A stretch of 60,560 bases of DNA, the filler included, from Candidatus Coatesbacteria bacterium (GTDB taxonomy: Bacteria; JAFGND01): the NCBI GenBank assembly GCA_016927185.1. It is 6 parts of 6 records of this genome, joined end to end, with 100 filler letters (N's around TTAATTAATTAA, not from the genome) between each part and the next. Parts side by side here need not be neighbours in the genome. Positions count along the whole stretch, not along the records: positions 24,827 to 35,194 come from JAFGND010000007.1; 5 more parts are not named here. The stretch is one strand, 5' to 3'. The position numbers and the translations under genes were made by a program. This document shows, piece by piece, positions 11,887-60,461 of the stretch. Below the pieces are notes generated by a model that was not told the origin of the DNA, made no database searches, and saw only the letters and a list, made by a program, of their open reading frames with translations. Each line of letters begins with the position of its first letter. Position 1 is the stretch's first letter.

Positions 11887-11986
11887 NNNNNNNNNNNNNN
11901 NNNNNNNNNNNNNNNNNNNNNNNNNNNNNNTTAATTAATTAANNNNNNNNNNNNNNNNNNNNNNNNNNNNNNNNNNNNNNNNNNNN
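11887..11986. other. Artificial contig spacer
   Basis: N run with TTAATTAATTAA; same at 24727-24826, 35195-35294, 46521-46620, 49986-50085. Confidence 0.99.
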
Positions 11987-24726: not shown

Positions 24727-24860
24727 NNNNNNNNNNNNNNNNNNNNNNNNNNNNNNNNNNNNNNNNNNNNTTAATTAATTAANNNNNNNNNNNNNNNNNN
24801 NNNNNNNNNNNNNNNNNNNNNNNNNNGCAAGGAGATATTAGAGAACTCTGTTTAAACATA

Positions 24861-33661: not shown

Positions 33662-34423
33662 ATGAAGAAGGCTATCTTGGTTCTATTTTTACTAAGCCTA
33701 TTTTCAACTTTAGCCTACGCTGAAATAAGAACTGTTCAGGGAGAAATATTTGGTTATTATGGCTGACCCTATTGCCCAAGTGCAGTTAAGGCACTTAGAT
33801 TATTGTGGCAGGAAAAAGGTTATGATTTAACTCCAATAGCCTGGTGGCGCAATTATTCAGGAAACTATTATAGCCAGCGTTCTAGCTATTATGCAGTTTC
33901 TGGAGTTCCTACAGCAGTATTTGATGGATTAGGTAAAGTAGTTGGTGGAGGTTCAGATACTAATAATGTTAGTGGTGTTCTCAACAGATACAGGCAAGAA
34001 TATGACAAACGCAAGGCAATCAGCTCTCCACTTTGGATAACTATTATTCCTGAATGGATAACGAAGAATGTAAAAGGACAGGCAAGAATAAGTGTTACAG
34101 TTAGAGAAACAGTTACAACAACTAATAACAAGATCTGGGTAGTTATTCTTGAAAAGAATGCTGGAGGAACATATAAACTTTTCCATTGCGGAAGGGAAAG
34201 AATTCTCTATGAGGATTTCACCTTGACTCAAGTAGGACAATCCCAGAATTACAAGGTTGAGTTTGATGTGCAATCAGGCTGGAATCCAGATAATCTGGCA
34301 ATAGCAGTTTTCGTTCAAAGTGACGCGAATAAGGAAGTAATCCAGTCAGGTTGGTATGACCAGTTCTCACAAGCAAATATCAAACAGGCAACCTGGGGTG
34401 GGATAAAGAGACTTTATAAATAA
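33662..34423 (+). CDS. Exported Omp28-like selenoprotein (UxxC), 253 aa; TGA 33764-33766 = codon 35
   Basis: AAGGAGG SD; signal peptide (AYA|E); GEIFGYYG-U-PYCP in frame with track ORF 33803-34423 (YAVSGVPTAVFDG, DNLAIAVFVQ...KEVIQ); hairpin 11 nt after the TGA. Confidence 0.88.
33778..33796 (+). promoter_or_regulatory. Putative bacterial SECIS element
   Basis: AAGTGC-AGTTAAG-GCACTT, starting after an 11-nt spacer from the in-frame TGA. Confidence 0.78.
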
Positions 34424-34430
34424 GTAACAG

Positions 34431-34452
34431 GGAGATATTTTTTAATATCTCC
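34431..34452 (+). terminator. Intergenic hairpin between the two selenoprotein genes
   Basis: GGAGATATT-tttt-AATATCTCC. Confidence 0.6.
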
Positions 34453-34494
34453 TGCTTATTTTAGTATTACATTAACATTAAAGGAGGTGATAAA

Positions 34495-35031
34495 ATGAGA
34501 ATATTTATGGCTTTAATATTGTTGTATGGTTTTGCATTTGCAGCACCTGAAATTGGTGATCCTGCTCCAGATTGGACACTTCCAAATCTTGACAATAACC
34601 AGAATTACCACCTTTATGATTATATGGGAAAAGTAGTATGGATTAACTGGTTCTGGACAGGCTGACCATCTTGCCGCTCGGAGTTACCGAGTCTCAATAC
34701 TCTTGCAGGAGAATACAAGCAATCAAAACCATTATGTGAATTCTTTGTTATCTGTTCATTTGACGCAGCAAATAATTGCAAAAGTTACAGGGATCAGAAT
34801 CCAAACTTGATTTTCGTGTCTGATTATCCATCAAGAGCAGTTTATATAGCTTACAGACATGGTTCAACAAACTATGTTCCAATGAATTACTGCCTGAGAA
34901 AGGACTTGACAGTTCACTATTATGCATTTGGATATAATCAAAATACTGCCAGACAGAAATTCGAGGAAGCATACGAATATACCAAAATCAAGAAAACCAC
35001 ATGGGGTGGCATAAAATCAATGTATAGATAA
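34495..35031 (+). CDS. Exported TlpA/AhpC-TSA-like redoxin selenoprotein (UxxC), 178 aa; TGA 34663-34665 = codon 57
   Basis: AAGGAGGTG SD; signal peptide (AFA|A); IGDPAPDWTLPNLD...YMGKVVWINWFWTG-U-PSCRSELPSL; YVPMNY cis-Pro; in frame with track ORF 34807-35031. Confidence 0.9.
34677..34691 (+). promoter_or_regulatory. Putative bacterial SECIS element
   Basis: CTCGG-AGTTA-CCGAG, starting after an 11-nt spacer from the in-frame TGA. Confidence 0.78.
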
Positions 35032-35127: not shown

Positions 35128-35194
<67 letters not shown>

Positions 35195-35294
35195 NNNNNN
35201 NNNNNNNNNNNNNNNNNNNNNNNNNNNNNNNNNNNNNNTTAATTAATTAANNNNNNNNNNNNNNNNNNNNNNNNNNNNNNNNNNNNNNNNNNNN

Positions 35295-35599: not shown

Positions 35600-35762
35600 A
35601 CGAACTCTCCCTTCTTTTATAATCAAGAATTAAAAGCAATATTCTGATGTCAACAAAAAATAAACGCTATATTGATCTTGACAAAATTCAAGATGCTTTT
35701 CATAAAAGGTGAAAAAACAAGATAAAAGAATTACAGAGATTTTGTTTGAAATGGAGGAAGAT

Positions 35763-37160
35763 ATGAAAAAACCATTCCTTATTATCAATTTTCTATCGAT
35801 TTTCTCATTGTTAATTCTTGCTCTATCCTGCGGAGATGAAACAACTGATGACGGGAATGGAACAGGAACAGGAACTGGAACAGGAGATGAATTATCAATA
35901 ACAGTTACTAATCCACCTGCTGAAGGAGCATTTGCAGACAGCTATTTTACAATAAAATGGACATACACAAGGAAATCTGTAACTTTCCCTAAAGTGAGTC
36001 TCTATTATGATTCTGATACCCATTCTGGTGGGGAAATAGCAATAGCAGAAAACATACCAGCTTCTGCAGAATCGCTTGTGTGGGAAACATATGACATGCC
36101 TGAAGATAATGATTATTACATTCTCGCAGTAATAGATGATTCTGAGACATGTTCAGTAAGCAGAAAGCCTTTCAATGAGAAGTCTGTCCATACTTATTAT
36201 ACAAGGAAAAATCATGATTCGAGTAAAAGCATGGAAAAAGCTCAGGATTATTCAGATGGAACTGTCAGAATTGATCATAGTTCATTTGGATGCCGTCAGG
36301 AATTCTATCATGGTGGTGAAGTTAACTCAGTAGTCTTCTCGCCTGATGAGAAAAATGCTTTATCAGGAGGTTCCGATAATGCAATCAGATACTTCAGAAT
36401 ATCAGATGGACAATGCCTGGGAATATGTAAAGGCCATACCGAAAGAGTGAGATCAGTAAAATTCATGCCTGATGGACAGTATTTCATGTCTGGAAGCGAT
36501 GATGAAACATTGAAATACTGGAAGTTATCTGATAGCACATGTTACAGAACATTGAGAGGTCATTATTGTCAGGTAAACTCAATCTGCATTACAAAAGATG
36601 GTCAGTATGTTTTATCAGGCAGCATTGACACATTTCTCAAATACTGGAGAATATCAGATGGCTCTTGCATAAGGACATTCACTGGTCACAAGGGTGGAAT
36701 TCTGTCAGTAGATATCTCACCTGATTCCCAGTATGCCTTGTCCGGTGGTTATGACTTTTCAATCAAATACTGGAAAATATCAGATGGAAGCTGTATCAGA
36801 ACGTTAAACGGGCACAGCTATTATGTTTTCTCAGTTGCATTCTCCCCGGACGGTCAATATGCAGTGTCAGGGAGCTGGGATAATACTATCAAGTACTGGA
36901 GAATATCTGATGGAACATGCTTGAAAACAGTTGATCTTAAAACAAGGATAAATTCAGTATGCTTTACGACTGATGGAGAATTTGCATTAGCAGGTGACTA
37001 TAATGGAGCTCTAAGATATATAAGAATATCTGATGGAGAATGCTTGAAAACAATGAAGAAACATGGTAGTGCTGTAACATCCGTTTGTATCTCCTCAGAT
37101 GGTCTGTATGCACTGTCAGGAAGCTGGGATAAGTATATCTATTACTGGAGATTATATTGA
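35763..37160 (+). CDS. WD40-repeat lipoprotein 1
   Basis: Lipobox ALSC, GTGTGTG linker, Ig-like segment, 7 WD40 repeats. Confidence 0.92.
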   Translation: MKKPFLIINFLSIFSLLILALSCGDETTDDGNGTGTGTGTGDELSITVTNPPAEGAFADSYFTIKWTYTRKSVTFPKVSLYYDSDTHSGGEIAIAENIPASAESLVWETYDMPEDNDYYILAVIDDSETCSVSRKPFNEKSVHTYYTRKNHDSSKSMEKAQDYSDGTVRIDHSSFGCRQEFYHGGEVNSVVFSPDEKNALSGGSDNAIRYFRISDGQCLGICKGHTERVRSVKFMPDGQYFMSGSDDETLKYWKLSDSTCYRTLRGHYCQVNSICITKDGQYVLSGSIDTFLKYWRISDGSCIRTFTGHKGGILSVDISPDSQYALSGGYDFSIKYWKISDGSCIRTLNGHSYYVFSVAFSPDGQYAVSGSWDNTIKYWRISDGTCLKTVDLKTRINSVCFTTDGEFALAGDYNGALRYIRISDGECLKTMKKHGSAVTSVCISSDGLYALSGSWDKYIYYWRLY

Positions 37161-37171
37161 AAGGAGCTGAA

Positions 37172-38590
37172 ATGCTTAAGGCGGGATCTAAATTATGCAC
37201 AATACTTGTTTTTGCAATGCTGATACTTCTTTCCTGCGGGGATGAAAGCAGTGATGAAGGAAATGGTACTGGAACAGGGACTGGAACAGGAGATGAATTA
37301 TCAATAAAAGTCACGGATCCTCCTTCATATGGTTCATATTCAGACGATTATTATACAATAAGATGGACTTATAAAAGTCGAGAAGGGACTTTTCCTTTGG
37401 TAACACTATATTACGATACTGATACGATTTCAGGAGGTGAAATAAAGATAGCTGAAAATATTGCGGCATACGATTCTGCATATGTATGGAATACAATCAA
37501 TTTGCCAAGCTTCACATCATATTATATTCTTGCAGTCATAAATGATGACAAGACTTCTTCTAAGGAAAAATCAGGTATCAATAGAACAAAGAAAAGGAAT
37601 CACTCATCTTATAGAAGTAATTACAGTTTAATGCAAACAAACCTGAATCCAGATTGCATAGGTGAAAGAATGGCTGCGAATTATGATTATTCAGATGGAA
37701 CTGTTACTATTAACCATTGCTGCCTGATAAAAACCTTGACTGGACATAATGGAGCAGTATATTCTGTCTGCATTTCTTCAGATGGCAGGAATGCCCTGTC
37801 AGGGAGTGATGATACAACACTCAAGTATTGGGATTTATCAAATGGAGCATGTCTGAAGACTTTCTATGGACATAGTTCCATTGTTTATTCTGCCTGCATG
37901 TCCAGGGATTGTCAGTATGCCTTGTCAGGAGGCTGGGATAAGACAGTCAAATACTGGCGAATATCTGATGGAACTTGCTTGAGATCTTTTACAGGACATA
38001 ACGATGCTGTTTATTCAGTCTCCATTTCCCCTGACGGTCAGTATGCATTATCTGGAAGCGCTGACAATACAATAAAGTACTGGAAAGTATCTGACGGAAC
38101 CTGCATCAGAACACTGACAGGTCATAATAGTTATGTAAATTCAATCTGTATATCTCCTGATGGAAAGTATGCATTGTCAGGAAGTGATGACCAGAATATA
38201 AAATACTGGCGATTGTCAGATGGGATTTGCATAAGAACAATTATACTGGCAGGTATAGTCAATTCAGTCTGTTTCTCTCCTGATGGAAAGTATGCATTGT
38301 CAGGTGGAAGTTCTTGCAAATACTGGCGATTGTCAGATGGGAAATGCATGAGGACTTTTGAATACTACTATACAGTTATTAACTCAGTCTCAATATCACC
38401 AGAAGGTAAACATGCCTTGTCAGCAGAAGAGGATAATAATTTTTTTCGAATCTCGGATGGCGTCATGTTGAATGTATTTGGTGCTTGTGGTTATTCTTTC
38501 AAATATAATTCCATATGTTTTTCTCCTGATGGTCAGTATGCATTGACTGGATGCACTAGCAAGGAAATGGAATACTGGAGGCTCTATTAA
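37172..38590 (+). CDS. WD40-repeat lipoprotein 2 (tandem paralog)
   Basis: Lipobox LLSC; same architecture; both paralogs end YWRLY. Confidence 0.92.
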   Translation: MLKAGSKLCTILVFAMLILLSCGDESSDEGNGTGTGTGTGDELSIKVTDPPSYGSYSDDYYTIRWTYKSREGTFPLVTLYYDTDTISGGEIKIAENIAAYDSAYVWNTINLPSFTSYYILAVINDDKTSSKEKSGINRTKKRNHSSYRSNYSLMQTNLNPDCIGERMAANYDYSDGTVTINHCCLIKTLTGHNGAVYSVCISSDGRNALSGSDDTTLKYWDLSNGACLKTFYGHSSIVYSACMSRDCQYALSGGWDKTVKYWRISDGTCLRSFTGHNDAVYSVSISPDGQYALSGSADNTIKYWKVSDGTCIRTLTGHNSYVNSICISPDGKYALSGSDDQNIKYWRLSDGICIRTIILAGIVNSVCFSPDGKYALSGGSSCKYWRLSDGKCMRTFEYYYTVINSVSISPEGKHALSAEEDNNFFRISDGVMLNVFGACGYSFKYNSICFSPDGQYALTGCTSKEMEYWRLY

Positions 38591-38880: not shown

Positions 38881-40419
38881 ATGAACAAGCTATATTATGG
38901 TGATTGCCTTGATGTCTTGAGGGATCATATTCCTGATGAGTCAATAGATTTGATATATATTGACCCACCTTTTAATTCAAAGAGGAATTACAATGTCATA
39001 TATGATGGAGCAATGGCACAAGCAGAGGCTTTCAAGGACACATGGAGTTTAACCAATCTTCAGGAAGAGAAAACCCTTATTTTCAAGAAAGAACCACAGA
39101 GATATCAAGCACTGCATAATGTTATAGACAGTTTTGAAAAGATGCTAATAAATTCAGAACCATCTTTACTTGGATATTTGATAAATATGTCAATAAGGCT
39201 TGTTGAGCTGCGTAGAGTTTTAAAAGATACTGGAAGCATATATTTACATTGTGATCCTACTGCAAGTCATTATCTTAAGATACTTATGGATGAGATATTT
39301 GGCAGGAAGAATTTCAGGAATGAGATAGTTTGGTGCTATAAAACAAGACAATTTTCTAAAAAATATTGGAATAGAAAACATGATGATATTTTATTCTATT
39401 CAAAAAGCAAGAAATATCCCTTCTATTATAAAAGAGTGTTAAATCCTCTATCTGAAAGTACAATTAAAAAATATAAATTAATAGATGAAACAGGAAGAAG
39501 ATACAGATTGGAAGGTAGGGGAATTCAGGGAAGTCCTATCAGATCACAAAAGGATGTAAATGAAAAATGGGAAAAAACAAATCCAGAATTAACAATAAGA
39601 GACTATTTAAAAGATGGATATCCTCCTGAAGATTATTGGAACATTAATATAATAAATCAAGCTGCAAAAGAACGTTTAGGATATGCCACCCAGAAACCTC
39701 TAGAATTACTTGAAAGAATAATCAATGCAAGCTGTCCAGAAAAAGGTATTGTCCTTGATGCTTTCTGTGGATGCGGGACTACTGTTGCAGCTGCAAAGAA
39801 ATTGAACAGGCATTTCATAGGAGTGGATATAACTTATCTTGCAATAGATTTGATAAAGAAAAGGTTGATTGACACTTTCTACAAGGATGAGAAGAAATTC
39901 AATAAGGATGTCGAAATTTTCGGAATTCCAAAGGATCTGGAAGGTGCAAGAGTATTAGCAAAAGAGACAAAGAATGACAGGGTAAGAAAGGAATTCGAAA
40001 AATGGGCAGTATTCAAGGCTAATGGCATATACACAGAGAAAAAAGGTGCTGACTATGGTCTTGATGGATACCTGTTCTTATGGGATGCTGGAGAAACCAA
40101 AATAAAGGGAGTTATTCAGGTAAAGAGCGGGAAAGTCGGGGTTCATCAGATAAGAGATTTCAGTCACACAATAGACAGGGAAGGAGCCAGTTTCGGTTTC
40201 TTCATAACTTTGGAAGAACCAACGAAAAATATGTTTGAAGAGATAAACAAGCTTCCCAAAGTCATTTCAAAAATGGGAAGGGGATTTGATAAAATCTATA
40301 TAATAACTGTTCAGGATTTGCTTGATGAGAAACTGCCATCCTTGCCTTTTGGAAGAATGGTAAAGAAGGCAGAAAGAATAAAGCAGGAAGAAGATAATAA
40401 TATAGATATGTTTGAATAA
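38881..40419 (+). CDS. Beta-class N6A/N4C DNA methyltransferase fused to a C-terminal Mrr-like PD-(D/E)XK domain
   Basis: YIDPPFNS, YATQKP, VLDAFCGCGT; C-terminal DYGLDG...IQVKSG. Confidence 0.88.
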   Translation: MNKLYYGDCLDVLRDHIPDESIDLIYIDPPFNSKRNYNVIYDGAMAQAEAFKDTWSLTNLQEEKTLIFKKEPQRYQALHNVIDSFEKMLINSEPSLLGYLINMSIRLVELRRVLKDTGSIYLHCDPTASHYLKILMDEIFGRKNFRNEIVWCYKTRQFSKKYWNRKHDDILFYSKSKKYPFYYKRVLNPLSESTIKKYKLIDETGRRYRLEGRGIQGSPIRSQKDVNEKWEKTNPELTIRDYLKDGYPPEDYWNINIINQAAKERLGYATQKPLELLERIINASCPEKGIVLDAFCGCGTTVAAAKKLNRHFIGVDITYLAIDLIKKRLIDTFYKDEKKFNKDVEIFGIPKDLEGARVLAKETKNDRVRKEFEKWAVFKANGIYTEKKGADYGLDGYLFLWDAGETKIKGVIQVKSGKVGVHQIRDFSHTIDREGASFGFFITLEEPTKNMFEEINKLPKVISKMGRGFDKIYIITVQDLLDEKLPSLPFGRMVKKAERIKQEEDNNIDMFE

Positions 40420-41063: not shown

Positions 41064-41897
41064 TTATTTGAATTGAGTTAAGGGTTTCTTGAATCTGTCC
41101 TGTATACCTTTTACATACTTTTCATTCATTTCTATCATCGTGAAATGCCGCTTGAGTGCTTTTGCAACATAACCTGTTGTGCCGCTTCCTGCTACAGGAT
41201 CAAGTACCAAGCCACCCTCATTTGATGAAGTAAGAATAATCCTTCTCAGAAGCTCCACTGGTTTCTGAGTAGAATGAAGCTTGTTGCCTTCTGCATCCTT
41301 GAGTCTTTCCTTTCCCCCGCAAATAGGTATTTCCCAGACATTTGCACCAATACTGCCTACTCCAAAGGTTTTTGCAAGTTCCCTTTTGAAAGTATATTTC
41401 TTTGCATTCTTGTCTTTTGTTGCCCAGATAAGCGTTTCTGTTGCATTTGTGAATCTTACTCCAAGCCAGTTTGGCATTGGATTTGTCTTCAGCCAGAGTA
41501 CATCATTGAGAATCCAGAATCCAAGATCCTGCATGATTTTCCCGATCCTGAAAATGCTGTGATAAGTTGATATAACCCAAATGGTTGCATTCTCCTTCAT
41601 CACTTTTTTTGTCTTGAAAAGAAGGTCTCTCATATATTCATCATAATCTTCGAATGATGCGAACTTGTCCCATTTATCATCAACAGCATCAACCTCAGTT
41701 TTCACATTCCATCTTTTCAGCTTTTTAGGTGGAAGTTGCAGGAAATAAGGAGGATCCATGAAAACCAGATCAAATGTTTCAGCAGGAGTTTTCTCAAGAA
41801 CTTCTAAAGCATTCCCTTGTATTATTTTATCAATAATGCACTCACTGCAAAGTTCAGTATTTTTCATGAATTTCAAGACAAGCTCTTCATTTTCCAT
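41064..41897 (-). CDS. Orphan beta-class adenine methyltransferase, CcrM/M.HinfI-like
   Basis: DPPYFLQL, VDDKWDKF, GFWILND, NPMPN...RFTNATETLIWA, HSTQKP. Confidence 0.88.
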   Translation of the reverse strand: MENEELVLKFMKNTELCSECIIDKIIQGNALEVLEKTPAETFDLVFMDPPYFLQLPPKKLKRWNVKTEVDAVDDKWDKFASFEDYDEYMRDLLFKTKKVMKENATIWVISTYHSIFRIGKIMQDLGFWILNDVLWLKTNPMPNWLGVRFTNATETLIWATKDKNAKKYTFKRELAKTFGVGSIGANVWEIPICGGKERLKDAEGNKLHSTQKPVELLRRIILTSSNEGGLVLDPVAGSGTTGYVAKALKRHFTMIEMNEKYVKGIQDRFKKPLTQFK

Positions 41898-41926: not shown

Positions 41927-42709
41927 CTATCTTTTTTCAACAGTGAATTCCTCGTACTCTGATGTGATCTCAAAACCTATTGATTTATAACACTTTATAG
42001 CAGCATGATTATCCTGTTTTACATTCAATCCTATATGAGTGACATGCTTGAGTAGATTCTTGCAAAGCATTGCTGTAACTGAAGTTCCAAAACCCCTTGC
42101 CCTGTAATCAGGATGAGTTGTAATATTTCCGAGTGCAGCAACCTTGTAGTCCTTCGAGAAAACATGAACACCTGCAATGCTTTCAAGTTTTCCGTCCTTC
42201 TTAAGTCCATAATACATACCAGTTTGAAGCATCTTGAGTTCGAACCAGTTACCAGGATAGCTCGTGCTGTAAAGATCAAGAATTTCTTTTCTGTCATCCA
42301 TATTCAATTGAATAACCTCATTACTTTCAATAGATTGCACGATTTCCTTGTTCACAAGAGACATCTTGTAATGTTTTCCATGAGATACAAGTTTGAATTT
42401 TTCAGAGAGAATATCATACAATCCAGTTGATATATGCATATAGAAGGCAGAGGGAAGAAAATTCTGTACTGACAACAGGAATTCCTTAGCTGAAAGACCT
42501 CCTGATGAAAGAAACAGGAATGTTGGAGTTGAAAGTCCTGTGAACAGAAGCGCAACTTCCTGTAATTTATCATTTTGCAGTATTCCGTACCAGCTCGTAT
42601 ATTTCCAGAAATAATCATCAAGATCCCCGATTTCATATATATGAAGGAATGTATCTTTTCTCAAGAATTTCTCTAGTGTGCTCTTATCGTGTAATGTTAT
42701 GATTTCCAT
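41927..42709 (-). CDS. GNAT acetyltransferase (FR47-like)
   Basis: LGNITTHPDYRARGFG, NHAAIKCYKSIGF. Confidence 0.9.
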   Translation of the reverse strand: MEIITLHDKSTLEKFLRKDTFLHIYEIGDLDDYFWKYTSWYGILQNDKLQEVALLFTGLSTPTFLFLSSGGLSAKEFLLSVQNFLPSAFYMHISTGLYDILSEKFKLVSHGKHYKMSLVNKEIVQSIESNEVIQLNMDDRKEILDLYSTSYPGNWFELKMLQTGMYYGLKKDGKLESIAGVHVFSKDYKVAALGNITTHPDYRARGFGTSVTAMLCKNLLKHVTHIGLNVKQDNHAAIKCYKSIGFEITSEYEEFTVEKR

Positions 42710-43139
42710 GAACTCTCTCCCAGTTTTCAATATCACCTTTCACTATATGAAAGACTAAATTAGCCTTTATATTTCTTATTCCCTTAAGTTCTTGATATTT
42801 ATTAAAGTCCCTTATTCTCAGTTTTTCAAGAAGATGGTTGTATTCATAAAGGATCTGTCCGTCATTTACTGGAATTGCATCATGTAATTCATTGGCATGC
42901 AGAATTTTACTGAAATCAAATCCGAAATCTCTTCTTATTGATTCTTCATGTATTGTAACAAGATAAGAACCAATTGCTTGCAGTGGTTCACAATATTCCA
43001 TGAATCGTGCAAGCTGAGGATGATTTCTGTAAGCTTTTGTCTTTCCAGAAATTACAGCCTGCGCAAGAAGCGATTCCCTCCACAGGGCTGTAAGTCCTTT
43101 TGTATCAAGATATTCAGGGCTTATTGACCAGAGCCTCAT
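42684..43139 (-). CDS. Pyrimidine dimer DNA glycosylase / T4 endonuclease V-like protein
   Basis: MRLWSISPEYLD..GL.ALWRE, YRNHPQL. Confidence 0.88.
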   Translation of the reverse strand: MRLWSISPEYLDTKGLTALWRESLLAQAVISGKTKAYRNHPQLARFMEYCEPLQAIGSYLVTIHEESIRRDFGFDFSKILHANELHDAIPVNDGQILYEYNHLLEKLRIRDFNKYQELKGIRNIKANLVFHIVKGDIENWERVHGNHNITR

Positions 43140-43181
43140 GAAAATGCTTTCTCGTATTTTATTAACAGGCAGCAAGTTACA

Positions 43182-43655
43182 TCATTCATTTTCACCCTTG
43201 AAATCTGATACCTTGCAGGAAATTTCCAGAATATCTATCCTTATTATTGTAACTGTTTCAGACATTTCATCAGTGAATTCAAATACTTTCCCTGAAACGT
43301 GTTCAGTAATAAGGGAAAGGGCATGCTTTTTCTCTTCAGTATCATCAACAAAGAATGCCCTGCCGTTTGCAATAATGCTTTTATACTTGATGCTTCCCTT
43401 GCAAGGTACATCAGGGACCAGATAATCTTCCATTATGTCAAATTCTACACAGACAATGTTATTCTTTTTTAGAATATCGATTTTTTTCCCGACATGTGCA
43501 CAATGGAAGTAAATGGAATTATTTTCATAACCGAAATTGACAGGAACAATGTATGGATGATTATCTTCTGACATCCCAATCCTGCAAACCATTGTTCCTG
43601 CAATTATTTCATCAATAATTTTCCTGTCAGTTATTTCCTTGTCTTTGCGTCTCAT
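43182..43655 (-). CDS. Pyridoxamine 5'-phosphate oxidase family (NimA-like) flavoprotein
   Basis: MRRKDKEI, PYIVPVNFGY, IYFHCA..GKK. Confidence 0.9.
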   Translation of the reverse strand: MRRKDKEITDRKIIDEIIAGTMVCRIGMSEDNHPYIVPVNFGYENNSIYFHCAHVGKKIDILKKNNIVCVEFDIMEDYLVPDVPCKGSIKYKSIIANGRAFFVDDTEEKKHALSLITEHVSGKVFEFTDEMSETVTIIRIDILEISCKVSDFKGENE

Positions 43656-46427: not shown

Positions 46428-46742
46428 ACTTTCTCCTTCTTTTAGTGACTGAAAAAACCTTAAAATACGTGTTCGACAAGCTTGCCATTTCATCTCCTTT
46501 TTACTTTCTTACACAATATANNNNNNNNNNNNNNNNNNNNNNNNNNNNNNNNNNNNNNNNNNNNTTAATTAATTAANNNNNNNNNNNNNNNNNNNNNNNN
46601 NNNNNNNNNNNNNNNNNNNNATAAATATCCTATGTATTGCTTTAAATATTTTTTTCATGATTTAATTCATTAAAAGGTTAGATTTAGCTTGCCAAAAAAA
46701 TAAGATTTTATAATAAGGGCAAAAGAAAGGGGGAATTAGAAG

Positions 46743-49882: not shown

Positions 49883-50086
49883 ATATGCTTTCATCATTCG
49901 AGAAGAGATTCAGACTTATTCTTTTTGGTTTTATAATAGTGTTGTTGTTTGTTATTTTTGGGAACATTATATTATACAACAGAACNNNNNNNNNNNNNNN
50001 NNNNNNNNNNNNNNNNNNNNNNNNNNNNNTTAATTAATTAANNNNNNNNNNNNNNNNNNNNNNNNNNNNNNNNNNNNNNNNNNNNT

Positions 50087-54402: not shown

Positions 54403-55968
54403 TTATTTTATAACTGTAAATCTTCTATTCTGGATAATCTTGCCATTCATTTTTAATACAATATGATAGACTCCTGCAGCACAGGCTTCCATATTTAATA
54501 TTCTTTGTAATTTACCAGTTTCCAGGGCTTTTTCCTTATGTTCTGCTATCCTTTTCCCGCAAATATCATAAATGGTAATTATAACCTCATCATTCTTTCT
54601 TGAACTGTATATCACATTGAGTTTATCAAATACTGGATTTGGATAAATTCTCAATCCTCCCCAGGCAGGCAGTGCTTTCCTGAAAGTCTTGAAACCTGTG
54701 CTGCGTGAAGTAATTGCATATGTATCAGTTCCTCTTCCAGAAACATTCGCATGAACTGCTTTTCCAGTTGCAAGAGCATAATCACCAGTTGGGGAAATAG
54801 ATGAGCTGAACATTGAACCTGGTGAATTGACTGAAAATGCCAATTGCTGGTTCTCTATATCAAGAATGGCTACCTCATTCTCATCAGCAGAAGTTCCCCA
54901 TGTTGTTGTAATGACATAATTTCCAGCCTGGTCGCTGCATATGCTGGAAGGTACGTTCTGTCCGCTTCCTCCTGAAGCTGGGTAATCATAAGTCCATACA
55001 GGAGTGCTACTTGATGAATTATAATATACGAATTTCCTGGTATTGGCTGAAATATTCCATAATTGTCCGAAAACTCTTGAACCATCATCGTTTAATCCCA
55101 CAGCATAAAAATATGATCCACTACCGCTTGCTGTCCATTCCCTGTTATAAGCAGTTCCATTCCATTTATAGAGATACAAAGAACCGAATCCTATAGCTAT
55201 ATAATCTCCATTACCGCTTATTGCATGAGCATCAACTGACGCTGGAGTATTACCGGATCCTCTTTCCACTCCTGTTTCAAGATCCCATACATAAAACTTT
55301 GTTGAGCAACCCATATATCCGTATTTCGAGTTCTTTGAAATCCTTATCTGCCTGAAGGAAGTTTCGCTTCCTGATGGATATAGTGTATATAGGGGAGTTG
55401 CAGAATCAGGCCTGAATACAATTAATGCAACCTGTTGTCCAATTTTTGCACCAGCGATTATATATGATCCATTCCAGTTTGTTTCAACATCAGATATTGC
55501 AGCAGAACCTCCATCATATATCCAGTCTGGAGTTGAAGAGCTGGATGAAGAGAACTTGTAAAGCTTGTTTCTACCCTGGACTATTGCAGCATAAACATTT
55601 GCATTCCATGCACCTGTACACATTGGATAGGTACTGTTATCGAATGCATAAGTTACTGCAGGGGTATTAGAGTTATATGGGAAAACGTACAATGAAGGGC
55701 TGTTCAATGCAAAAGAGACAAAATCATATGCTGTCCCGTCAAGTCTTCCAACTTCACATTTCTGACCTATCTGAGATGCATCATGATATGTCCATGATAA
55801 TTCATAATTGCCTGCGGAAACCCAGGTTGTTTTCGAATTATCCAAAACGCATGAATAGTCACTGCTAAAGTCTTTGATAAAAGAACCTGTTTCATTTATT
55901 ATAGCAATCCTGCTGTTTTGTGCAAAAAGTGCTGTTGAAAGAATGAAAATCAAGAAAAAATACTTCAT
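54403..55968 (-). CDS. Secreted beta-propeller-like protein with canonical T9SS type A CTD
   Basis: Signal peptide; IYPNPV...IYDICGK...GVYHI...FTVIK. Confidence 0.85.
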   Translation of the reverse strand: MKYFFLIFILSTALFAQNSRIAIINETGSFIKDFSSDYSCVLDNSKTTWVSAGNYELSWTYHDASQIGQKCEVGRLDGTAYDFVSFALNSPSLYVFPYNSNTPAVTYAFDNSTYPMCTGAWNANVYAAIVQGRNKLYKFSSSSSSTPDWIYDGGSAAISDVETNWNGSYIIAGAKIGQQVALIVFRPDSATPLYTLYPSGSETSFRQIRISKNSKYGYMGCSTKFYVWDLETGVERGSGNTPASVDAHAISGNGDYIAIGFGSLYLYKWNGTAYNREWTASGSGSYFYAVGLNDDGSRVFGQLWNISANTRKFVYYNSSSSTPVWTYDYPASGGSGQNVPSSICSDQAGNYVITTTWGTSADENEVAILDIENQQLAFSVNSPGSMFSSSISPTGDYALATGKAVHANVSGRGTDTYAITSRSTGFKTFRKALPAWGGLRIYPNPVFDKLNVIYSSRKNDEVIITIYDICGKRIAEHKEKALETGKLQRILNMEACAAGVYHIVLKMNGKIIQNRRFTVIK

Positions 55969-56105
55969 ATGAACTCCTTTCGTTTGCATCAGAATATTTT
56001 CATGCAGAATAATGTCCAGAAATTTCTTTAAAACAATCTTGTTTTATTTCTTGACATGCAATAAAAAAAAATGCTTTCCGTCTAATACAATTTAAGGAGG
56101 CTTAT

Positions 56106-58842: not shown

Positions 58843-59315
58843 TTCTGGATATTGATGAAGCATCTGAATTTATCAGGAACAAACAAGCTGAAGGGAAAAA
58901 AACTGTATTCACGAATGGATGTTTCGATTTGCTGCATTCAGGTCATCTTGATTTGCTTGAAAGAGCCAGTAAGCAAGGAGATATACTGCTGGTTGCAATC
59001 AACAGTGATAATTCCGTAAGAAAACTGAAAGGTGAAAAAAAGCCACTCTTTCCTGAGCAAGAAAGAGCTGAATTGATTGATGCACTAGAACCTGTAGATA
59101 TTGTAGTGATATTTAATGAAGAGACTCCCTTTGAAGTAATTGAAGCCTTGAAGCCCGATGTTTTAATTAAGGGAGGAGACTGGGATATTGATAACATAGT
59201 TGGAAGAGACACTGTATGGAAAAGAGGAGGGAAAGTAATCTCCCTGCCTCTTTTAGAAGGTTACAGTTCGTCCTATGTAATAAGCAGGATAAGAAAGCTG
59301 TTCTGTCCTGATTAG
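58839..59315 (+). CDS. rfaE2: D-glycero-beta-D-manno-heptose 1-phosphate adenylyltransferase
   Basis: VFTNGCFDLLHSGH, NSD.SV.KLKG, KGGDW, GYSSS. Confidence 0.93.
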   Translation: MILDIDEASEFIRNKQAEGKKTVFTNGCFDLLHSGHLDLLERASKQGDILLVAINSDNSVRKLKGEKKPLFPEQERAELIDALEPVDIVVIFNEETPFEVIEALKPDVLIKGGDWDIDNIVGRDTVWKRGGKVISLPLLEGYSSSYVISRIRKLFCPD

Positions 59316-60196
59316 CTATTCACGAACAGGTTATACTTTACCTCACTTGCTTTTCTTACCATTGCATTTACACCACAGTATTTGTTTTCAGACATTGAAG
59401 AAGCTTCTGCCACTTTCTCTTCCTTCAAATCACCAAATGCATGAATATTAACATTGATTTTTGTTATCACTTTAGGATTATCAGCTGCTATCTCTCCTTC
59501 AATTTCTAAATAGAGCTTTTCAAGATTCTGCCTCATCTTCTTGAGTATATATGTAATATCCATGCTTGTGCAACCTCCTAAGGCAGCCAACAGAAGTCCT
59601 CTTGGGGATGGTCCTAAATCCTTGCTTCCATATTCAGCAGACAGATCTGTCATTAATTCATGGTTATCAGTAATGCTTTCAAAAGTCAAGTCATCTTTCC
59701 AGTTAAGAACTACCCTGTGAGTTGATTTGGGATCAAAGTCTTTTTCTTCCTTGTTGCATCCACATTTACACTCTTGAGAGTGAGCGAATTCAAAGCAGGT
59801 TTTTATATCTGAGGCTTTTGTCAGCATGGCATGAACAGGGCATAAATTCTTTTCTGCAATTTGATATGCTTGCTTGAACTTCTCTTCATCTACAACTCCA
59901 TATGCTTTCAAGTATACTCTGATATTATCATATATTATTGGATGCTCCTTTGACATGTCCCCTTCCACTACTATTTTAAGATTATCACAATTGATATTCA
60001 TCTTGCTGAGGACCATTTTCAATGTCATTCCGACACAACCTCCCAGTGAAGTCAGCAGGAGCACTTTTGGCTTAGGTCCTTTATTCTGACCTCCACTTTC
60101 TGCTGCAGCATCAACAACAAATGAATGTCCTTCTGTTTCGACATTAAATGCCATGTCTCCCAACCAGTTGAGCTTTGTCTTCAATACTTCTGTCAT
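59312..60196 (-). CDS. Tandem double OsmC-family protein
   Basis: Two OsmC units (GPKPK..LGGC...CPV; GPSPR..LGGC...YCGV) joined by a CKCGC linker. Confidence 0.88.
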   Translation of the reverse strand: MTEVLKTKLNWLGDMAFNVETEGHSFVVDAAAESGGQNKGPKPKVLLLTSLGGCVGMTLKMVLSKMNINCDNLKIVVEGDMSKEHPIIYDNIRVYLKAYGVVDEEKFKQAYQIAEKNLCPVHAMLTKASDIKTCFEFAHSQECKCGCNKEEKDFDPKSTHRVVLNWKDDLTFESITDNHELMTDLSAEYGSKDLGPSPRGLLLAALGGCTSMDITYILKKMRQNLEKLYLEIEGEIAADNPKVITKINVNIHAFGDLKEEKVAEASSMSENKYCGVNAMVRKASEVKYNLFVNS

Positions 60197-60461
60197 AATT
60201 CCTCCTATCACTTTTATTTAAATCTAATAATAATTTATGCAATCTATGAAAAATGTCAAGTCTTAAAGATAGACTGACTTTAAAAAAAATCCTTTCTTCC
60301 ATTTCCAATGCTTATATACAAGTGATTTGAAGAACAATACCTCAAATGGGGCAAAGGTAGTTTTCCCTGGTTCTGAAAAATACTCCAAATGAGGTAATTT
60401 TGTAAATGCTTTACAAACATTGATTTATCTGGCAGCCTGTAAGAAATTCGTTGCCTCTGCT

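Follow-up and report, generated by a model that had tools for sequence, protein, structure and literature searches.

Tandem HBP35/Omp28-like and TlpA-like genes of a Candidatus Coatesbacteria draft genome, each with an in-frame TGA at the active site, as probable exported selenoproteins

Several kinds of bacterial selenoprotein are listed as carrying selenocysteine (Sec, U) as the first residue of a UxxC site. GOS_C was described from 74 Sec-containing and 312 Cys-containing sequences, with a thioredoxin-like fold and unknown function (Zhang & Gladyshev 2008; PMC2398784). A table in a 2026 review equates "Hypothetical protein GOS_C" with NF045500 (UxxC) and also lists "Prx-like thiol:disulfide oxidoreductase" (PF00578, UxxC), "Redoxin family protein" (PF08534, UxxC) and "UGC-containing TlpA" (PMC13188914); the main text of that review contains no mention of a signal peptide, the periplasm, the type IX secretion system (T9SS) or secretion. 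No paper tying Omp28 or DUF1223 to selenoproteins was returned by full-text search; comparable sequences may already figure in supplements such as Dataset S2 of PMC2398784 or in two sources that the review cites (references 61 and 62). A structurally related protein, HBP35 of Porphyromonas gingivalis, is a surface protein that binds hemin and needs its CxxC for thioredoxin activity in vitro, and its conserved C-terminal domain serves secretion and surface attachment (PMC2907840). Here we describe two genes, A and B, that form a tandem pair on the plus strand (positions 33662-35031) at the end of the third contig of a 60,560-nucleotide stretch of DNA (the window; G+C content 36%), which consists of six contigs of a draft bin of Candidatus Coatesbacteria bacterium (GCA_016927185.1) joined by N linkers. 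We consider it highly probable that both are genuine selenoproteins, and the whole is best explained, with only slightly less confidence, by exported thioredoxin-fold oxidoreductases that carry an active-site Sec inserted with the aid of a hairpin.

An earlier note made by reading this DNA had proposed that the two genes, each with a strong Shine-Dalgarno (SD) sequence, an ATG and a signal peptide, are interrupted by one in-frame TGA in the same context, GGC-TGA-CC (33764 and 34663), and all of these coordinates hold. It had further proposed that read-through yields G-U-PYCP and WTG-U-PSC, that it joins the leaders to start-less open reading frames (ORFs), that the TGAs stand where a thioredoxin-fold site has its attacking Cys, that both proteins share export leaders and a C-terminal tail, and that gene callers split both genes. 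Translation through the TGA gives a protein A of 253 residues containing G-U-P-Y-C-P and a protein B of 178 residues containing W-T-G-U-P-S-C, and in both cases links the SD, ATG and signal-peptide leader to an ORF that is otherwise without a start. Signal peptides were assigned by eye from sequence features, that of A reading as a classic leader with n, h and c regions; the leaders so assigned and the common tail are present in both proteins, and the splitting by gene callers is seen in database relatives, which are cut at the TGA.

The placement of the TGAs at the attacking Cys, and the expectation that homologues would show Cys or U there and that the TGA would be conserved, are borne out by the relatives. 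To compare gene A, the DNA of 27 related loci was translated through, 2 of which lack the N-terminus and are not assessable; in the other 25 the column holds TGA in 21 and Cys in 4 (CGPC or CPPC). Motifs at this column in A-type relatives include U-P-S-C-P, U-P-T-C-P, U-S-W-C, U-P-Y-C-P and U-G-S-C-P, among others, and 39 distinct UGA contexts were collected from A-type genes, tandem paralogues included. An alignment of 17 full-length A-type sequences (A4) is invariant at E28, the U/C column, C38, R73, Y77, P83, G89, F217, Q219 and Q228. Database homologues of A retrieved by word search are each N-terminally cut and start right after the motif/TGA. Relatives of gene B (30-34% identity) sit in 7 of the A-type loci, and in each of the 8 related copies long enough to include the motif, it reads W-U-[PGS]-S-C with TGA at the Sec codon. 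Fragments P0014 and P0015 (89% identical to B) and P0016 (54%) stop at ...NWFWTG, i.e. at the TGA, and a word-index search with full-length B gave no match of near-full length, the shorter matches being fragments only. An exhaustive HMMER search aligned 146 of 152 examined proteins across positions 57-60 of B; position 57 is Cys in 206 of 213 aligned stretches, and both Cys of the pair are present in 204 of 213. In 21 loci of A and 8 copies of B, protein-level conservation (29-50% identity) extends to either side of the TGA, with synonymous-type variation in the sequence flanking the TGAs. Over 249 bases, a divergent contig from the public run X1 shows 26 differences, none of which falls within the TGA of gene B (34663-34665).

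The Sec trait tracks the Sec forms among the relatives G001, G002 and G003. Genome G001, which has Sec forms, encodes tRNA-Sec (75.1 bits), selA (544.6 bits) and selB (335.1 bits) adjoining on one contig, and its selD (361.3 bits; L032, G001:C60:5268-6206, minus strand) contains one in-frame TGA, so that SelD is itself a selenoprotein. The complete genome G002 has the Cys form and no selA, selB or selD above cut-off, and in G003, which also has the Cys form, selD was the only one of the three found. Among the 31 genomes around G001, 19 contain family members, and an in-frame TGA occurs in those of G001 and G023 only.

Bacterial selenocysteine insertion sequences (SECIS) are stem-loops that lie shortly 3' of the UGA and have G/U in their apical loop, and SECIS-like hairpins follow the TGA in both genes (Table 1). 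The B-type hairpin, with a 6-bp upper stem and an AGUU[GA] loop 13 nucleotides after the UGA, occurs in 8 of 8 distinct sequences and shows compensatory changes in two upper-stem pairs and one lower-stem pair (e.g. G:C in relatives and U:A in the window); a covariance model built on this type (R1) scores 53.3 bits at gene B and 10.5 bits at the next match in the window. The close A-type relatives L004 and L005 have, by eye, a hairpin at the same place with another stem sequence, and across the G001-type clade the register proposed for the A-type hairpin pairs in 78.5% of cells versus 21-46% when the partner is slid.

Not all results favour Sec decoding. No selA, selB, selD or tRNA-Sec was found within the 60-kb window, i.e. 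in six contigs of a draft bin. Folding energies of the hairpins are not better than those of shuffled sequences, either at the two sites of the window (z -0.5 to -0.95) or over the 39 A-type sites (mean z = -0.86); Rfam SECIS families gave no match, whether at the gathering threshold or with E-values as high as 10; RNAalifold found no common hairpin in 26 ungapped A-type sites; the gene A site is absent from the 13 matches of R1 at E up to 10; and, since the A-type stem doubles as coding sequence for conserved residues, its covariation is weak. The SECIS evidence is good for B and, for A, merely compatible. The missing machinery and the unremarkable energies, together with the use of TGA as the stop of 23 of the window's 60 long frames, are what one would expect if both TGAs were ordinary stops, leaving two short leader ORFs and decayed or start-less remnants (pseudogenes, or Sec genes after loss of the Sec trait). 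We regard this as improbable, given that the protein is conserved across the TGA in the 21 A loci and 8 B copies with flanking variation of the synonymous type, that both frames are otherwise intact with SD and ATG, that Cys-form relatives have Cys at the column, and that relatives with the TGA have a full Sec trait. A genetic code that assigns TGA to Trp or Gly (NCBI tables 4 or 25), so that A and B carry W or G, finds a point in its favour in P0017, a full-length protein 51% identical to B that shows W at the Sec column; this W is probably a gene call that reads TGA as Trp. A scan of every in-frame TGA between open frames of the window found a UxxC in conserved context at the A and B sites only and, elsewhere, not one coding frame dependent on read-through, and since TGA is also a normal stop here, such a code is effectively excluded; moreover, W or G is no substitute at a column that is a catalytic Cys in nearly all aligned stretches of B relatives, and we give this reading very little credence. 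We give equally little to the idea that TGC or TGT was misread as TGA during sequencing or assembly, which would require one error to be shared by two independent sites and the same TGA to recur in dozens of independent assemblies, the divergent X1 contig retaining that of gene B as well.

The families of the two proteins were assessed by profile and structure comparison. Protein A matches NF045500 ("Omp28-related selenoprotein") at 62.7 bits (E 3.7e-17, residues 28-229) and has the UxxC in a thioredoxin-like fold that is a feature of this family; the cut-off is 200 bits, the relatives fetched score 32-66 bits, and none of the 31 genomes around G001 has a protein above it, so that A belongs to a sister clade and is no member by the curated rule. 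Like NF045500/GOS_C proteins, A has Sec first in its UxxC, a thioredoxin-like fold and Cys-form homologues; it differs in its length (253 residues versus a 377-position model) and in its C-terminal tail. Scores against Pfam are 31.6 bits for Omp28 (PF11551; gathering 34.9) and 16.8 bits for DUF1223 (PF06764; gathering 30.7), the latter over positions 3-202 of 202.

An AlphaFold model of A computed from a 17-row alignment (predicted local distance difference test score, pLDDT, 85; predicted template modelling score, pTM, 0.81) has a thioredoxin domain (~21-121), a beta-sandwich (~122-238, with seven strands in 124-232) and a disordered tail. In the model, U35 lies between strand 25-31 and helix 38-55 in a thioredoxin-like arrangement, with C38 at the start of the helix, and the invariant P83 occupies what we take to be the thioredoxin cis-proline position. 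Structure comparison of the model gave Z 22.1 with HBP35 (5y1a; root-mean-square deviation 2.7 Å over 212 aligned residues, model 19-241) and Z 19.1 with the Agrobacterium DUF1223 protein 2axo (AGR_C_4864; 190 residues), while the sandwich domain matched the solved Omp28 domain 2r2c at Z 13.2 and the first domain matched thioredoxins at Z of about 10-11.6. As modelled, protein A has the two-domain body of HBP35, DUF1223 and Omp28. It resembles HBP35 in packing a thioredoxin domain with a CxxC-type site on an immunoglobulin-like beta-sandwich, and its distant relatives share the HBP35 architecture including the T9SS domain; it differs in having Sec for Cys and an identity to HBP35 of 14%. Its likeness to DUF1223, for which we know of no function, lies in the weak full-length profile match and the structural match to 2axo, and its difference in a Pfam score far below gathering.

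Protein B scores above gathering with two Pfam redoxin families, AhpC-TSA (PF00578; 44.3 bits, gathering 26) and Redoxin (PF08534; 37.8 bits, gathering 26.6). Its W-T-G-U-P-S-C corresponds to the W-C-x-x-C active site that opens helix 1 in such redoxins and aligns with the WCPYC/WCPPC of 3hdc/3kcm, and U57 falls on the first Cys of WCxxC in solved chains of the TlpA/ResA/DsbE type. B stays below every NCBIfam equivalog cut-off, among them those for ResA (NF002854; 35.3 bits against 170), TlpA (NF047696; 25.6 against 230) and DsbE (TIGR00385; 18.9 against 123), and it has no match with the NCBIfam entry WAxxUGC_long. Like TlpA, ResA and CcmG (DsbE), it is a single-domain redoxin with W-x-x-[U/C]-x-x-C and predicted export, from which it differs by its T-W-G-x-I-K tail and by the T9SS domain of its relatives; it differs from UGC-containing TlpA by a U-P-S-C in place of the U-G-C. 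The earlier note's naming of A as Omp28-related and of B as TlpA-like thus stands, A by its NF045500 match and the fit of its sandwich to 2r2c, B by its redoxin scores and the alignment of its active site. Its word "undescribed" was too strong, as NF045500/GOS_C and UxxC redoxin, Prx-like and TlpA-like selenoproteins are already listed in the table of the 2026 review. Neither A nor B belongs to a named family by curated cut-offs, and both are divergent new members of kinds with known Sec forms.

A and B end alike in T-W-G-G-I-K-x-x-Y-[KR], as does no other frame of the window. The tail, with the consensus T-W-G-x-I-K-x-[LM]-[YF]-x in the lineage of the window, is also present in the A-type L004 and L005 and in the B-type P0017, P0033 (Cys form) and P0036, and since the tails of A and B differ at synonymous positions, it is kept at the protein level. 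Profile searches with Pfam and NCBIfam found no T9SS sorting domain (TIGR04183/PF18962) in A or B, and neither these profiles nor the literature matches listed offer an explanation for the tail motif. In the G001-type lineage, the C-terminus of A-type and B-type proteins alike is formed by a T9SS type A sorting domain that scores above the TIGR04183 cut-off, and distant relatives of A have a signal peptide plus a T9SS domain; T9SS cargo first passes the inner membrane via the general secretory (Sec) pathway, and these domains thereby favour export of A and B too. The window itself encodes a 528-residue protein (54403-55989, minus strand) with a canonical T9SS C-terminal domain (Por_Secre_tail, 44.8 bits), so that the bin has T9SS cargo and, provided that the contigs were binned correctly, the short tail does not stand in for a missing T9SS. 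A shared tail at the place where distant relatives have a T9SS domain is possibly new; that it is a targeting or anchoring signal is conceivable, and we hold it with more doubt than belief.

A B-type gene lies 1-4 kb from an A-type gene in 7 of the 27 loci; one of the 7 is a shorter locus, and the others are 6 of the 12 that exceed 4 kb. The whole of contig C63 of G001 (L039, 1-15058) is a 15-kb island. Besides five A-type genes and a single B-type gene, all of them Sec forms, it carries a translationally coupled Cys-form pair, in which the stop of a TlpA-like gene overlaps by 4 nucleotides the start of an Omp28-like lipoprotein gene, and another adjoining Cys-Cys pair of TlpA-like and Omp28-like genes is found in G023. 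The island also contains a 485-residue gene after the Cys-Cys pair, read as a possible beta-barrel, and a 749-residue gene on the opposite strand, read as regulator-like, both readings having been made without a family search. The recurrent side-by-side occurrence of the two families may possibly be new, and this neighbourhood is all that suggests the redox relay between A and B proposed in the earlier note.

That A and B act in one pathway has, in our estimate, at best an even chance. A strong competitor, which we also place short of even, is that both are genuine selenoproteins that function independently, their adjacency stemming from selenium-supply regulation or from descent of an island and involving no relay; B could then be a general envelope reductase, e.g. 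for cytochrome or copper-protein maturation, and A a surface or periplasmic binding/redox protein like HBP35. A joint function is opposed by a terminator-like hairpin between A and B (34430-34463), which makes separate transcription possible, by the absence of pairing in the other 6 of the 12 long loci, by the location of the Sec-form A-type and B-type genes of G023 on separate contigs, and by the frequency of TlpA-like genes in G001-type genomes, G001 encoding three more in addition to its Sec form, of which two lie off the island. That the signal peptides and localisation of A and B come from sequence reading counts against the preferred explanation as a whole. Independence is in turn opposed by the recurrence of the neighbourhood in two very different lineages (the 36% G+C window and the distant G001 type), by the Cys-Cys pair with overlapping stop and start codons, and by the fact that A and B share one C-terminal signal within each lineage.

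On the reading that we prefer, with A and B as exported, active-site selenoproteins, the pair could work as follows. UGA would be decoded as Sec in both genes with the help of the hairpin 13-15 nucleotides downstream, and both proteins would be exported by the Sec secretory pathway, have their signal peptides cleaved and then reside in the cell envelope, where the predicted cleavable signal peptides imply action by selenol/thiol-disulfide exchange. Attack by U35 and U57 on disulfides or on other oxidised substrates would leave a selenenyl-sulfide for C38 and C60 to resolve. By analogy with TlpA and ResA, B may be a reductant that works with or on A; A may be a partner or a parallel enzyme of B, its sandwich domain binding a ligand or a surface; and the shared tail, T-W-G-x-I-K-x-x-Y-x, may hold the two at one site.

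Coordinates of the features of the A/B locus are collected in Table 1. Upstream of gene A, the same contig encodes an FGE-sulfatase-domain protein (opposite strand), a phosphoribosyltransferase, QueH, a heptosyltransferase and an O-antigen ligase-like protein, which are envelope or housekeeping genes unrelated to A and B; the heptosyltransferase and O-antigen ligase-like genes indicate an organism with an outer membrane. No DsbD/CcdA-type electron donor was found among these upstream neighbours, and promoter-like sites around the two genes show no excess (5 seen versus 6.1 expected from shuffles). Gene B is followed by a partial tRNA (35134-35194, plus strand) that is cut by the contig end, scores 47.1 bits with Rfam and was missed by ARAGORN; read by eye, its anticodon loop (CTCATAA) and anticodon stem (GGG/CCC) are suggestive of an initiator tRNA-Met.

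Table 1. Positions of the parts of genes A and B and of the hairpins beside them, counted along the window.
Feature	Start	End	Strand	Details and basis
SD sequence of gene A	33651	33656	+	AGGAGG, 5 nt 5' of ATG; sequence reading
Gene A, HBP35/Omp28/DUF1223-type selenoprotein	33662	34423	+	253 codons; ATG 33662, TAA 34421-34423; read-through translation
Predicted Sec-type signal peptide of A	33662	33721	+	MKKAILVLFLLSLFSTLAYA, cleaved after AYA (next residue E); sequence features
TGA of gene A	33764	33766	+	Codon 35, U35 of U-P-Y-C38; context GGC-TGA-CCC
SECIS-like hairpin of A	33778	33796	+	Stem AAGUGC/GCACUU, loop AGUUAAG; starts 15 nt after U of UGA
C-terminal tail of A	34391	34420	+	T-W-G-G-I-K-R-L-Y-K; translation; model pLDDT <50
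Terminator-like hairpin and T-run between A and B	34430	34463	+	10-pair stem, tail GCTTATTTTA
SD sequence of gene B	34483	34489	+	GGAGGTG; sequence reading
Gene B, TlpA/ResA-type redoxin selenoprotein	34495	35031	+	178 codons; ATG 34495, TAA 35029-35031; read-through translation
Predicted signal peptide of B	34495	34542	+	MRIFMALILLYGFAFA, cleaved after AFA (next residue A); sequence features
TGA of gene B	34663	34665	+	Codon 57, U57 of W-T-G-U-P-S-C60; context GGC-TGA-CCA
SECIS-like hairpin of B	34669	34710	+	Upper stem 34676-34681/34687-34692, loop AGUUA; lower stem 34669-34674/34705-34710
C-terminal tail of B	34999	35028	+	T-W-G-G-I-K-S-M-Y-R; translation
Palindromic hairpin just 3' of gene B	35037	35062	.	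Terminator-like score on minus strand only

N runs with a short linker carrying stops in all frames were located at 11887-11986, 24727-24826, 35195-35294, 46521-46620 and 49986-50085; they are joints between contigs, and genes on either side of them are therefore not physically linked. A third Sec site was considered at 43182-43184 (minus strand), where a TGA lies between the 165-codon frames 43182-43655 and 42684-43175, and was rejected, there being no redox motif and no conserved context; these ORFs in the same frame are probably two adjacent genes. Elsewhere in the window, 35709-37160 and 37157-38590 (plus strand) encode tandem paralogous WD40 beta-propeller proteins, for which a lipoprotein-like leader (L-S-C-G-D-E), a G-N-G-T-G-T-G-T-G-T-G linker and Y-W-R-L-Y ends were read by eye (35709-38590). 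A fusion of a DNA methylase with an Mrr-type restriction endonuclease domain (38881-40419, plus strand) and a second N6/N4 methylase nearby (41064-41897, minus strand) probably make up a restriction-modification locus. A 299-residue protein (59312-60211, minus strand) has two OsmC-like stretches and no in-frame TGA; Sec forms of OsmC-like proteins are known elsewhere.

As it stands, the finding is well supported but extends known selenoprotein families in an ordinary way. Through the structural link to HBP35, the GOS_C-type selenoproteins, whose function is unknown, acquire a characterised relative. Entries such as P0017 hide selenoproteins as seeming active-site mutants, and because relatives of A and B are cut at the TGA or printed with W, both families are systematically under-counted in selenoproteome surveys of sediments and digesters. 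A broader idea, which we put forward as unlikely on present evidence, is that an HBP35/Omp28-like and a TlpA-like protein form a conserved envelope or surface redox module that was converted wholesale to Sec in several uncultured lineages and is placed by interchangeable C-terminal signals. If this were true, the tail on two unrelated families would be a new targeting or membrane-anchoring signal, and T9SS-exported selenoproteins would extend selenium redox chemistry outside the outer membrane. If neighbourhood and tail reflect a common pathway and a common address, A and B would represent a selenium redox module of the envelope, and its sorting signal would be new.

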